Shown: positions 15,013 through 18,773, counted from the stretch's first letter. The stretch is 64,000 nt of DNA from a candidate division FCPU426 bacterium (GCA_963847625.1 CAWKAR010000023.1:25290-89289), one strand, 5' to 3'. The notes: generated from the sequence alone by a model not told the origin. Numbers and translations: made by a program.

Positions 15013-15041
15013 ATTATATGAGCCAATACGTATCATGTCAA
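15013..15041 (-). promoter_or_regulatory. Perfect-consensus sigma70 promoter of the sigma-hspR-degP operon with a HAIR-like inverted repeat in the spacer
   Basis: TTGACA-N17-TATAAT exactly; ATGATA-N7-GCTCAT spans the spacer. Confidence 0.8.
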
Positions 15042-15413
15042 ATGAAATTTATTATCAAGGTGCTGTCCTAATTTGAAATATACCTTATTTATTGCTGTTT
15101 TGACGGGCTTATATATTGAAGGTGTTGTCAGTCTAAACAGCTTTTTCGACGGTTAGGTGAACAGTATAATGTTGTCACGATAGATATATTATACACCCCC
15201 CTCTCCCCCCTCTCCCCCTACCCTCCCCACCCCCAGGGGAGGGGGGTGTTATCACAAAATAACACTTTATTTTATTTAACCATCTATCCTTAGTGGGTAA
15301 ATTGTCATCCCTCATTGACATAAAACGGTATGAGAGTAAATTATAGGGTTTAAATTTTAACCCGTATTGCCTTGATTCTTTCGAGGTTAAGGTTAAAATT
15401 AATTTAACATCCC

Positions 15414-15468
15414 GTTGGCTCTTACGAGTCAGCGCCCCCCTAGGTACGTAACGGTCCTGGGGTTTTTT
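15414..15468 (+). ncRNA. Structured leader or small RNA upstream of the NYN nuclease
   Basis: Hairpin GTTGGCTC-TTAC-GAGTCAGC, then CCCTAGG...CCTGGGG plus T6; candidate promoter TTGATT-N16-TAAAAT at 15372-15399. Confidence 0.45.
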
Positions 15469-15485
15469 ATTTATGGAGCAAATTT

Positions 15486-16148
15486 ATGGCAAGAGTTACT
15501 GGTTTTATAGATGGGTTTAATCTTTATCATTCAATTGATGATCAAATAATTCCCCTCCCTCATTTCACCCAATACAAATGGCTTAATGTTATCAAACTTA
15601 TTAAAAGATTCATGCCATCAGAAGATACTTTAACTGATGTTTATTTTTTTTCTGCTATTACAGAGTGGGAAGTTGAAAGAGCAAGAAGACATAAAATATA
15701 TTTACAAGCTTTGCAAAATAGTGGCGTCAAACTAATTCTCGGAAAATTTAAAAAGAAAATCAAACGTTGTAAAAATTGCAATTTTGAAAGTGTATTTCCA
15801 GTCGAGAAAAAGACTGATGTTAATATAGCTGTAAGAATTATGGGTGCCGCTTTTAAAAATAGATTTGATAAATGTTATTTGGTTTCTGGTGACACCGACC
15901 TTGCCCCCGTTTTAGCAGAAATAAAACTTTTATTTTCAGACAAAATAATTGGTGTTATTAGTCCAATGGGAAGAGAGAATGGGGCTTTAAAACGCATAGC
16001 TCATATTCATGGGGCAATTTCGGAAGAGATTTTAAAAGATTCGATGTTTGAAAATCCATTAATTATTCCAGAAAAACCTCAACTTGAATGTCCCATTGAA
16101 TGGACTTGGAATCCTTCACCACCCGCCAACCCCGAAGTTAAATCTTAA
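15486..16148 (+). CDS. NYN (LabA/DUF88, PIN-like) putative ribonuclease with CxxC insert
   Basis: FIDGFN, EKKTDV, VSGDTDLAP acidic motifs; RCKNC. Confidence 0.88.
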   Translation: MARVTGFIDGFNLYHSIDDQIIPLPHFTQYKWLNVIKLIKRFMPSEDTLTDVYFFSAITEWEVERARRHKIYLQALQNSGVKLILGKFKKKIKRCKNCNFESVFPVEKKTDVNIAVRIMGAAFKNRFDKCYLVSGDTDLAPVLAEIKLLFSDKIIGVISPMGRENGALKRIAHIHGAISEEILKDSMFENPLIIPEKPQLECPIEWTWNPSPPANPEVKS

Positions 16149-16150
16149 AA

Positions 16151-16441
16151 TTATTTATTTTTATCTTGGCTAATTAAATAAGCTTTAACTGCCGTTTCTG
16201 GACTTTTAACTGGTGACAATTCTAAAACAGTTACAAATTCTGTGTGTCCAGGTTTATCTTCAAATCCCCACCCATAACACTTTTTAGCCGTTGGATGTCC
16301 TGTTACTTCAAAAATTTCAACTTCACCTTCCCACATAGTTTGTCCTTCGTGTTTTAAATAAACGGGAACGGTCTTAATGTGTTTAGCTTTGCAATGGTAG
16401 CCTTTACCGATTGCGTCTTGAATTGCTTCTATATATTCCAC
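16151..16441 (-). CDS. Hypothetical protein coupled to the IS1 transposase
   Basis: 96-aa ORF overlapping the transposase stop, GGAGG-like RBS context. Confidence 0.65.
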   Translation of the reverse strand: MEYIEAIQDAIGKGYHCKAKHIKTVPVYLKHEGQTMWEGEVEIFEVTGHPTAKKCYGWGFEDKPGHTEFVTVLELSPVKSPETAVKAYLISQDKNK

Positions 16442-17268
16442 TCGCCTTCAGCCCTTTCCAGTAGATCAAACAACGTCCAGGGGGCTTTTATCACACCAGC
16501 GGCCACAGCAGGAGCCGTTTTGATCGAAGAATGAATTTTAACGAAATTATAATAAGCGAAATGTAAGGCAACTGCCGCTTTAAAATTTTCCAGCTTTTTG
16601 CTGAAAGCATTTGTTAATCTTGCCAACCTACGGCAATGCATCCTTATCGTCAGGTTTTGCCGCTCGATATACGATGTGGAAATATAACCCGGATTTCCAC
16701 TTATCACTTTCGGAGTTAAGGAAGTTAATTCTGGAGGATTGTACTTACCCTTAAAATCCACAAGAGACGAGTAGGTTTTTACTATTTGTCCATAATCGGC
16801 ATTTCGGCCAAAGGCTATATCTATGGCCGCTAAAAAACCTTTATAAGCGTCCGTGTGAATCCTTGGTTTGTTTTTTAAACGTTTGGATAAATCAACAGCT
16901 AATTCAATAGCCGTTTCAGGAGACCTAGAACCGACTTTGTAATTAGGAACCAAACGAGTGTCTTTATCCAAAGTCATAAAAGTATAAATCTCGCCCTCCC
17001 CTGTTTCGGCGGCTTGAATCTTTTTACGCCCGTAAGCTGGTTTCTTTTTAATGAATCCATAAATCTCATCAATCTGGATTTTGTCACAGGTTAGATCGAC
17101 CATTTCCCTATCCGCTATCATGTCACAAGCCATTCCCACACGAAGGCCAAGGCGCATAATCGTATCCCGATGAACACCAGTTTGACGCTCCAATGAGCGA
17201 ATACTAGAATCTTCCACTAAGCCGGATAGAAGCCTTAATTTTGTTTGGTCATCCAGGTTGTTAGCCAT
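16429..17268 (-). CDS. IS1-family DDE transposase (single ORF)
   Basis: HTH SIRSLERQTGVHRDTI; DDE motifs QIDEIYGF, IHTDAY, STSYIERQN; RLTNAFSKK...YNF. Confidence 0.88.
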   Translation of the reverse strand: MANNLDDQTKLRLLSGLVEDSSIRSLERQTGVHRDTIMRLGLRVGMACDMIADREMVDLTCDKIQIDEIYGFIKKKPAYGRKKIQAAETGEGEIYTFMTLDKDTRLVPNYKVGSRSPETAIELAVDLSKRLKNKPRIHTDAYKGFLAAIDIAFGRNADYGQIVKTYSSLVDFKGKYNPPELTSLTPKVISGNPGYISTSYIERQNLTIRMHCRRLARLTNAFSKKLENFKAAVALHFAYYNFVKIHSSIKTAPAVAAGVIKAPWTLFDLLERAEGEWNI

Positions 17269-17303
17269 ACATTTTCTCCTTGCATTTCTTACTTACATGT
17301 ATT

Positions 17304-17348
17304 ATTGTACGCACATTAATTCTTATGTCAATAAAAAACGTACGTACA
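17304..17348. promoter_or_regulatory. Transposase promoter with palindromic operators
   Basis: Minus-strand TTGACA-N16-TACAAT (17304-17331); TGTACGCACA 17306-17315 and CGTACGTACA 17339-17348; third copy TGTGCGCACA at 17534-17543. Confidence 0.55.
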
Positions 17349-17360
17349 AAAAATAAAGCT

Positions 17361-17522
17361 ATGACCAAAGGTCGGAAAAAACTCCCCGATAATATAAAGA
17401 AGGCAAAACGCCTTTATTTGCGGTTAAATGAGGAAACTAAAGCGAAATATGAGCAAGCGGCTCAAAAGGCGGGAATAGGCCTATCTGAATGGATTAGAAA
17501 GACGCTTGACAAAAATTCTTGA
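17361..17522 (+). CDS. Small ribbon-helix-helix (CopG-like) DNA-binding protein
   Basis: RLYLRLNEETKAKYEQAAQKAGIGLSEWIRKTLD pattern. Confidence 0.7.
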   Translation: MTKGRKKLPDNIKKAKRLYLRLNEETKAKYEQAAQKAGIGLSEWIRKTLDKNS

Positions 17523-17548
17523 CAAGTATATTCTGTGCGCACAAGAAA

Positions 17549-17646
17549 TGGCGGAGGACGACGGCATCGAATCCGAATCGTGTCTCTAGCACGATGTACC
17601 CAGGATGTACAGCCTGAGCCCACAGCCTCTCTGTGGTTCATCCTCC
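17549..17646 (-). tRNA. Non-canonical tRNA-like RNA (allo-tRNA-like 9/3 fold, 98 nt, anticodon loop CUGUACAU, GCCA end)
   Basis: GGAGGATGA/TCGTCCTCC acceptor, CCACAG/CTGTGG D-stem, CTCAGG/CCTGGG anticodon stem, ATCGTG/CACGAT variable arm, CGG-ATTCGATG-CCG T-arm; G-U pairs form only on the minus strand. Confidence 0.7.
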
Positions 17647-17661
17647 GAGTTTATCAAGGTA

Positions 17662-17765
17662 GTAGGGGTGGGGAGCTTTAAAACTCCCCTTGCGAGCCAC
17701 CGCAATTTTGTTTCCCGTATTCAACCCACGGGACGAACCGAGTTTGGACCTCGGCCAACCCCCAC
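17662..17765 (-). ncRNA. Second irregular tRNA-like cloverleaf (104 nt, no encoded CCA)
   Basis: GTGGGGGT/ACCCCTAC closing stem with arms CCGAG/CTCGG, TCCCGT/ACGGGA, TTGCG/CGCAA and GGGGAGT/GCTCCCC. Confidence 0.55.
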
Positions 17766-17774
17766 AAGTACATT

Positions 17775-17808
17775 AAGCGGAATGTGTTTACGCACATTCC
17801 GCTTTTTT
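17775..17808 (+). terminator. Strong intrinsic terminator (plus-strand U-tract)
   Basis: Perfect 12-bp stem AAGCGGAATGTG/CACATTCCGCTT followed by TTTT. Confidence 0.75.
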
Positions 17809-18235
17809 ATTTTTCAACTATCCCTAAATTTTTATAAATTGTAGTGTGTGATCCTTTTCCTTTTTTTGTTCTTTTAATTCCATTTGGGTCTTTTTCTTTA
17901 GCCCATCTTTTTAAAGTTCCGGCGATGGTTCCCATCCTCACTTCATGTCCATTTTTTAAAAGTGCATCATGAACGTTTATCTTAGTAATCCTCACAATAC
18001 CCATATTTTTAACGGTTTTTTTAATGATTTCCTTGATCTCTCCGTGTTCTCTTCCGTTTTTTGGGTGATTTGCGCCCTTTTTTAAAAAAACAAATTCAGG
18101 CATCGGAATAATAAAATCTTTTCTGTCCTTATCAAAAAGTTCATTTAGATTTTGAATTTTGGAGTTTAGTTCTTGAACGTTATATTTTTGGTATAGATCA
18201 TTCAGTAGTTTGGAATAATCGTCTTTAAACTTCAT
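17807..18235 (-). CDS. Hypothetical basic protein, possible C-terminal winged helix
   Basis: AAGGA RBS before ATG 18235; ITKINVHDAL...GTIAGTLKRW resembles a wHTH. Confidence 0.5.
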   Translation of the reverse strand: MKFKDDYSKLLNDLYQKYNVQELNSKIQNLNELFDKDRKDFIIPMPEFVFLKKGANHPKNGREHGEIKEIIKKTVKNMGIVRITKINVHDALLKNGHEVRMGTIAGTLKRWAKEKDPNGIKRTKKGKGSHTTIYKNLGIVEK

Positions 18236-18773
18236 GTTACACATCCTTCGAGTGATTAAACTAATTTTACTATTATGTTCAGAGATGATACAAGCCAAAA
18301 ATGTAATTAGTGCGATTTATTTACCCAATGGCTTACACAATGGTTTTTGTATGCCTTTCTCTTGTACAATCTCTTGTCATACAAAAGCAAAGCGTGAATT
18401 ATCTAATTTCTCTTTGTTTTCAATGGTTTTAGATGATTTTTGTCCTACAAAGCATTGAGTATTTTGCATGTATTTAGGTATGAAAAAGGAGGGGTTGAAC
18501 GGCTCTAAAGGAAAAACGTTAATACAATTACCGCAAAGAGCAAATTCATATTTTACTAATGAGGCTGATTTAAAGGGAATTTTTAGGTTTAACGATATTC
18601 ATTAGAGTGAATTAGGACAGGACCATTATCAAGATGCCAGGTATTTGAAAACGGCTTATTTATGTGGGTTTTGACGGCTTTATTGACTGAAGGTGCCGAC
18701 GGTTGAAGGGAGTATTCCGGCCGCTTGGAAATGATCTTTTAGGCGAGACGGGTTAATGGTGCATCAAGAACGA

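Follow-up and report, generated by a model that had tools for sequence, protein, structure and literature searches.

In a stretch of 64,000 nucleotides from a candidate division FCPU426 bacterium (GCA_963847625.1 CAWKAR010000023.1:25290-89289; below, 'the window', with positions counted from its first letter), we find a genuine IS1-like transposon, judged by its ends and transposase, that spans positions 15059-18624 and carries passenger genes. By fold and sequence, one of these passengers, RNA1, groups with other 9/3 allo-tRNAs that reside on transposons, and this family is overlapped on the opposite strand by a predicted promoter-to-terminator unit. All metagenome members of the family have anticodons that would read stop codons, and their fold bears the marks of selection. 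Our best reading of this arrangement, which we put forward tentatively and regard as possible rather than probable, is a miscoding tRNA toxin that would be silenced by a cis-antisense RNA, with the pair operating as an addiction or abortive-infection module. The features of the element are compiled in table 1.

RNA1 and its family

The cloverleaf into which RNA1 folds comprises a 9-bp acceptor stem, a 3-bp T stem, a 6-bp D stem, a long variable arm, G73 and an encoded CCA end (folding z -3.15; 2 of 200 shuffled sequences were equally stable). Its 12-bp acceptor branch is thus organized as 9/3, and the long variable arm and G73 are serine-type features. The D stem carries a 5-nt loop, where most family members have a tetraloop, and the anticodon GUA lies in a loop of 8 nt instead of the 7 nt of a 9/3 allo-tRNA. 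This 8-nt register is favoured by 6.5 kcal/mol in RNA1 as well as in its counterpart in a sister element (locus L021 of genome G015), and in four copies with a CUA anticodon the 7-nt register is slightly favoured. Positions 17606-17611 within the loop form a 6-base palindrome, and a loop-to-loop RNA1 dimer is therefore conceivable, if speculative. A preliminary description of this DNA had announced a tandem pair of cloverleaf RNAs of the allo-tRNA type. This holds for RNA1 with its 9/3 plan, but not for the second RNA, RNA2, which lacks a T-loop, the D-loop GG, an acceptor branch of 12-13 bp and a CCA end.

Standard annotation passes such genes by: ARAGORN in default mode reported no gene in the window and none in six family loci, and Rfam gave no match near the gathering score in the window. 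Allo-tRNA-like genes of the RNA1 type are therefore probably under-annotated. A structural scan found tRNA-like genes beside related transposases, and nine of these seeded a family model, R1. Scanning JGI metagenomes with a DNA pattern, and without the transposase as a query, then gave 35 matches, of which 26 were true members at 60-88 bits and nine were dropped for want of a model match. Of the 26, 24 share a contig with a transposase or with a 96-aa open reading frame (ORF) that recurs with the transposase. Within the loop, the pattern allowed variation only at the first anticodon base and fixed the rest, including C37; at the free position we found C in 13 members, U in 13 and G or A in none, i.e. 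13 CUA and 13 UUA anticodons, all stop-reading.

In these 26 members, which lie outside the seed alignment, 18 of the 24 predicted pairs show double-sided changes, in an alignment that was fitted to the R1 model and so leans towards the 9/3 fold. RNAalifold likewise returned the 9/3 fold for them, with a 7-nt loop closed by G.U. Across the family pairs, G.U outnumbers A.C by 16 to 1, which identifies the tRNA strand as the structured one. Judged by these substitutions, the fold of the RNA1 family is under selection.

In 99 genomes of the host phylum, only the window and L021 score above 45 bits, everything else remaining at or below 42 bits, and the canonical tRNA of the host genome that matches the model best is tRNA-Ser. 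With the anticodon and base 37 both left free, 401 genomes of the phylum of G100 gave eight pattern matches, seven of which were dropped as lacking a model match; the sole true member has UUA and C37, stands beside a transposase, the 96-aa ORF and a ribbon-helix-helix (RHH) gene, and has the antisense promoter described below. Viral contigs yielded one family match, with CUA, and three further pattern matches that the model did not support.

A GUA anticodon in an 8-nt loop is confined to the window and L021, versus none of the 26 metagenome members, and no further copy was found in the viral contigs or in the 401 genomes. L021 is 2.5 kb long and shares the core of the element, with a transposase that is 49% identical; its cargo ORF is another one, and its RNA, of the 8/4 type, has the anticodon loop of RNA1. 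The stems of the two RNAs differ at four of seven pairs, and yet all seven are paired in the 8-nt register, which suggests, for n=2, that the 8-nt form is kept by selection. The genes of the window element show no enrichment of GTA codons.

CUA or UUA tRNA-like genes on other scaffolds, several of them short-armed, occur within delimited elements at L039, L046, L047, L072, L090, L119, L128, L135 and L196, and other anticodons are seen in the delimited elements L089 (UAU) and L170 (GUA with A37). In a further group (L232:526-656, L238, L256, L258, L260 and L064), a common leader, in which a ribosome-binding site and a tiny ORF are combined with two hairpins, precedes the tRNA, and the gene 5' of this leader is DUF5343-like in several. 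Overall, the ORFs upstream of the RNA in 17 family copies are mixed, with DUF5343 in three (one above the cut-off) and weak AbiEi-type matches in two.

The antisense unit and the possible role of RNA1

On the plus strand, a predicted promoter and a predicted terminator bracket both RNA1 and RNA2, and would give rise to an antisense transcript of ~270 nt (about 17541-17810). We scored this arrangement in 34 family copies, i.e. the nine seeds and 25 metagenome members (L244, which is cut at its 5' end, was left out of the promoter count, and L231, with its short flank, out of the terminator count). In 21 of the 34 copies and in 8 of 15 flank clusters, an antisense promoter is predicted no more than 25 nt from the tRNA 3' end; the next three windows gave 1/34, 1/33 and 1/33, shuffled sequences 1.4 +/- 1.2 (at most 6 in 300 shuffles), and the tRNAs of the host 1/43. 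An antisense terminator follows within 220 nt beyond the RNA 5' end in 20 of 33 copies, as compared with 3/33 on the sense strand and 21/150 in random windows. Eleven loci scored apart (L274 and ten shorter or different tRNA-like genes) show the antisense promoter within 25 nt in five cases.

How could such a pair act? According to Mukai et al. (PMC5389517), allo-tRNAs put serine at leucine codons in E. coli, their induction leads to growth arrest and death, and two of six amber variants of transposon-associated allo-tRNAs killed the cells. Their charging follows identity elements and not the anticodon, and one transposon-associated group was inactive in translation (PMC5389517; review PMC7609411). 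In the mechanism that we propose, the host seryl-tRNA synthetase would charge the RNA, because the latter has a long variable arm and G73 and the enzyme is blind to the anticodon, and the charged RNA would miscode. The CUA and UUA forms of the family would then insert serine at stop codons, and the window copy, with GUA in its 8-nt loop, might, though probably weakly, read tyrosine codons as serine or induce +1 slips. By pairing with the tRNA precursor, the antisense RNA would either block its folding or trigger decay of the duplex. Should transcription of the element stop, because the element is lost or because a phage shuts off transcription in the host, the antisense RNA, being short-lived, would vanish first, the stable tRNA would outlast it and translation would be poisoned. 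The outcome would be an RNA-RNA toxin-antitoxin pair that serves addiction or abortive infection. A broader version, namely that a widespread group of IS1-like elements carries such an RNA-only pair of stop-reading tRNA toxin and cis-antisense antitoxin, and that the 8-nt form is a selected sub-type which could act as a four-base or frameshifting decoder, appears doubtful to us. An enlarged anticodon loop does not necessarily mean four-base reading (PMC5009743).

Several observations weigh against a silenced toxin. The antisense RNA and the RNA1 transcript are both predicted from sequence signals, using promoter and terminator rules that are simple ones of our own, and by the same rule other ARAGORN tRNAs in the loci show a promoter in 9 of 92 cases. 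Thirteen of the 34 copies, among them the closest RNA relative of RNA1 (L021), and 7 of the 15 flank clusters have no antisense promoter. Moreover, kin inflate the counts: one RHH-linked cluster makes up 15 copies, 14 of which have the promoter, and in this cluster the -35 and TG bases overlap coding and stop codons of the RHH gene, with the end base of the -10 element lying outside the gene. The promoter of L234 and L236 lies just 5' of the transposase start and may be the divergent promoter of the transposase gene. The CCA end is encoded in only 7 of the 34 copies, and the RNA is found in a minority of elements (seven strong model matches in 107 delimited elements, all of them seeds). With respect to decoding, C37 and the 8-nt loop are both expected to weaken it. 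The metagenome pattern, with the rest of the loop fixed, placed A37 variants outside the survey, and none of the six UAU-type variants of Mukai et al. suppressed amber (PMC5389517).

Alternatively, the tRNA-like RNA might not decode at all. Placed at the end of a transcript of upstream leader plus mRNA, it would tag this transcript for processing or stability, or act as a decoy for proteins that bind or cut tRNAs, and the antisense unit would regulate the transcript. Such a role would fit the presence of C37 in every member seen, the preference of the window copy for the 8-nt loop, the structured leader or gene that lies directly upstream in many copies, and an extra junction stem which many members fold and which Mukai et al. 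tied to translation-inactive allo-tRNAs (PMC5389517). A pure tag, however, needs no restriction to stop-reading anticodons, and in 26 of 26 members the free anticodon base is C or U, with stop-reading anticodons recurring on unrelated tRNA scaffolds in related elements. We regard this alternative as unlikely.

The window copy itself could be a disarmed relic of a functional family, with its anticodon and stem register mutated away from toxicity. Its anticodon-loop form is shared by just two copies, the right terminal inverted repeat (TIR) is worn (14/20) and the element is the only copy in its genome; on the other hand, window and L021 have retained the same loop despite the distance between their transposases, both encode CCA, and their diverged stems are fully paired in the 8-nt register, all of which, for n=2, points to selection and leaves a relic quite unlikely. 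A mild, non-toxic suppressor that tunes expression of the element by read-through of stop codons in the transposase, the 96-aa ORF or the cargo would also account for the stop-reading anticodons of the family. We consider it improbable: in only 6 of 18 loci (counted by eye) could the resident anticodon read the stop codon of the transposase gene, which is TGA in ten, L021, a GUA copy, is the only locus in which the transposase shares its reading frame with the adjacent 96-aa ORF, and the window anticodon reads no stop codon.

The proposed silenced tRNA toxin has relatives among known systems. With allo-tRNAs, RNA1 shares the 12-bp acceptor branch in its 9/3 form (8/4 in L021), the long D stem (here with a 5-nt loop in place of the tetraloop), the variable arm and G73 (PMC5389517). 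Mukai et al. also list 9/3 species for the UAA codon, and they describe a clustering of allo-tRNA genes close to genes for transposon proteins and toxin-antitoxin systems, the reason for which they leave open (PMC5389517). What sets the RNA1 family apart is its location inside delimited elements and its loop CU-(C/U/G)UA-CA with C37: in the tables of PMC5389517, four loop motifs had no match and a fifth had one outside the anticodon loop, as compared with 131 for a control motif. Neither an 8-nt-loop form nor an overlapping antisense unit is mentioned in the available text of that paper. Type VIII toxin-antitoxin systems consist of two RNAs (PMC10532202). Like these and the cis-antisense systems of type I, the pair considered here would be formed by two overlapping opposite-strand RNAs, in this case predicted ones, within a mobile element; it differs in the proposed toxin, which would be a chargeable miscoding tRNA and not a base-pairing small RNA or a peptide. 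Type VIII toxins such as SdsR/RyeA and CreTA are base-pairing small RNAs.

IS1-like elements with passenger genes and the proximity of allo-tRNAs to transposons are already known, whereas a search of the literature (mostly non-subscription, at the level of titles and abstract starts) found no description of antisense-controlled or transposon-borne suppressor tRNAs or of the 8-nt form. With its delimited elements, stop-codon anticodons and recurrent predicted antisense unit, the RNA1 family offers a concrete and testable answer to the question why allo-tRNAs cluster as they do. If this is true, the toxin of an RNA-RNA module would be a tRNA, and a tRNA whose 8-nt loop is natural and maintained by selection would, if real, be relevant to recoding and genetic-code expansion.

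The transposon and its other passengers

Table 1. Features of the IS1-like element and its borders (window coordinates).
Feature	Position	Strand	Basis or remark
Left target-site duplication ATTATCAA	15051-15058	.	exact 8-bp duplication
Left TIR	15059-15078	+	matches the commonest family end at 18/20
Diverged copy of host DNA just right of the element (18643-18695)	15071-15124	+	alignment score 44
NYN leader: promoter-like site, hairpin, terminator-like hairpin with U-run, ribosome-binding site	15372-15480	+	folding z -4.0
NYN-domain RNase, PADLOC HEC-09 type	15486-16148	+	Pfam PF01936, PADLOC
96-aa ORF	16151-16441	-	no Pfam family; recurrent transposase partner
IS1-like DDE transposase, single ORF, 279 aa	16429-17268	-	D67, D140, E202 invariant
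RHH protein, 53 aa	17361-17522	+	divergent from transposase
Predicted sigma70-type promoter, antisense into RNA1 3' end	17506-17534	+	own promoter rule
RNA1, 9/3 allo-tRNA-like RNA, anticodon GUA in 8-nt loop (17605-17612)	17549-17646	-	folding, family model
RNA2, four-hairpin junction RNA, not tRNA-like	17662-17765	-	folding, family model
Predicted intrinsic terminator of the antisense transcript	17775-17814	+	own terminator rule
Orphan ORF, 142-163 aa depending on start choice	17807-18298	-	upstream of RNA2 and RNA1
Right TIR	18610-18624	-	next 5 bases inward no longer match left end
Right target-site duplication ATTATCAA	18625-18632	.	exact copy of the left one

The element has a length of 3,566 bp and is flanked by an exact 8-bp target-site duplication (TSD). 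Its TIRs are identical at 14 of 15 positions (15059-15073 and 18610-18624) and, when extended to 20 nt, at 14 of 20, which is below most relatives. As is generally known of the IS1 family, TIRs start with GG-nnn-TG and TSDs measure 8-9 bp, and the ends described here follow this rule. Similar ends with an exact 8-bp TSD delimit 107 of 172 loci with related transposases, at sizes of 1.3-7 kb. The element is present once in the 63-contig host genome, has a GC content of 0.31-0.43 as against ~0.5-0.6 in most flanking windows, and is flanked by genes of the sigma-70 and lysylphosphatidylglycerol-synthase families. In G001, a genome of the same genus, the two genes are ~160 bp apart with an alignable junction, i.e. 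the orthologous site is empty, but its 8-mer differs from the TSD. The TIRs, the exact TSD, the intact transposase and the mobile, passenger-carrying nature of the element had all been claimed in the preliminary description and are borne out; of the empty allele with a single TSD copy that it named as a check, the empty site was found and the identical 8-mer was not.

D67, D140 and E202 of the transposase are invariant across 29 aligned proteins and, by motif, would be the catalytic residues. The protein stays below curated cut-offs (PF03400, 24.0 versus 24.1; NF033558, 41.2 versus 100), and most of its homologues carry PF03400. JGI, NCBI and plasmid records assign the DDE transposase to the IS1 family. 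Homologues at E <= 1e-60 number 5,196 among 8,000 scored candidates, and the four closest relatives (P0003-P0006) are 70-85% identical. Classical IS1 of the E. coli type has two ORFs joined via a frameshift. The element thus resembles the IS1 family in its IS1-labelled DDE transposase, its GG-nnn-TG ends and its 8-bp TSD, and departs from it in having a single ORF without an InsA/InsB frameshift, in missing the curated cut-offs, in its recurrent 96-aa ORF and RHH partners and in carrying tRNA-like genes as passengers. Presumably, it is close to the single-ORF, passenger-carrying IS1 subgroups (ISMhu11-like or tIS); a literature search for 'ISMhu11' found no paper.

Of 172 transposase loci, 42 contain the 96-aa ORF and 15 the RHH gene, both counts being lower bounds from single-query tblastn. 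The ~2.7 kb of cargo given in the preliminary description therefore includes real passengers but is overstated, since these two genes recur with the transposase. Its RHH regulator is supported by a NikA-like match (E 2.4e-6), and the two ORFs it had left as unknown, i.e. the 96-aa ORF and the orphan ORF, remain without a family assignment. The 96-aa ORF also occurs without an adjoining transposase of the same family (L002:5759-6040, L022:7277-7573, L021:8039-8302). The further possibility that the transposase and the 96-aa ORF are joined by read-through or fusion found no support.

The NYN gene matches Pfam PF01936 (E 1.5e-11) and, over 206 of 220 residues, the PADLOC HEC-09 model (E 2.3e-47); its acidic residues D111, D136 and D138 are invariant in 11 homologues, and its leader is more stable than all of 200 shuffles. 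An NYN nuclease with a structured leader, as previously described, is thus confirmed. Not so its pairing with the RNAs: a profile built from the 11 homologues (positive control, E 1e-53) matched none of 199 transposase or RNA loci, a set that leaves out P0003-P0006, and L021 shares the RNA loop but has different cargo. Four other NYN loci in the phylum have no RNA1-family match, and in L270:1330-1500 and L271:1330-1500 a promoter-hairpin-terminator leader precedes the NYN gene without the RNAs. NYN and RNAs hence assort independently, and by this comparison the NYN gene is a separate passenger with its own, predicted attenuating leader. The initial idea that the NYN RNase finds its substrates, decoys or antitoxins in the RNAs, suggested by their presence in one element and compatible with the conserved acidic residues, is very improbable given the 199 loci without NYN and the NYN loci that keep their leader without RNA, and a tested HEC-09 representative gave no phage protection in the preprint by Payne et al. 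(bioRxiv 10.1101/2024.01.29.577857). A mobile RNA-based toxin module, as the preliminary description called the element, remains plausible in view of an allo-tRNA in a mobile element, but NYN would not be the partner. Despite its likeness to HEC-09, the window gene sits in a transposon and not inside an Hma system. No NYN relatives were found in viral contigs. The HEC-09-type leader is a candidate attenuator motif, and the window copy has no Rfam match.

RNA2 lies 15 nt upstream of RNA1, is as strongly folded (z -3.15; 0 of 200 shuffles equally stable), is not matched by the R1 model and is probably a structured leader. Homologues were found neither in the family and transposase loci (BLAST, nhmmer) nor in 98 other genomes of the phylum or in viral contigs (exact pattern). 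One contig of run X1, at low stringency, combines a transposase-like piece with an 80% match to 17689-17806, in which, among the differences listed, seven of the nine bases of the central loop of RNA2 are changed. L021 has a multi-hairpin RNA of its own between the RHH and tRNA-like genes (L021:7494-7585), with no sequence match to RNA2. For the orphan ORF, no homologue was found among proteins of near length, and a single-sequence model (pLDDT 41) gave no fold match; atlas scores (best 0.89; HARE-HTH cluster 0.86) offer a winged helix as a lead only.

At the left end, the diverged copy of host DNA (15071-15124) and its counterpart at 18643-18695 are alike in 42 of 55 columns, lie at nearly equal distances from the TSD and score well above 213 other element ends (at most 30) and 2000 shuffles (at most 25). 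The shared motif is partly conserved in G001. The copy may re-establish the sequence that lies 5' of the sigma-factor promoter; target mimicry as a family trait was ruled out, with other ends scoring 13.4 +/- 2.8. Ten bp outside the left TSD, a predicted sigma70 promoter for the sigma-factor gene (15013-15041, minus strand) has a perfect 12/12 match, in a region conserved throughout the host family. Inside the left end, at 15195-15250, a C-rich run is followed by a G-run, of low complexity and possibly forming a hairpin (z -2.8).

Two small-share DNA sequencing runs contained no piece spanning the window element. The same genome has a second, more distant IS1-like element with TIRs, an 8-bp TSD and cargo (L001:6838-10931, G000:C27), which gave no RNA1-family match. 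In two other genomes of the host family (L019, L020), unrelated insertions of ~7 kb and 1 kb lie between the same two flanking genes.

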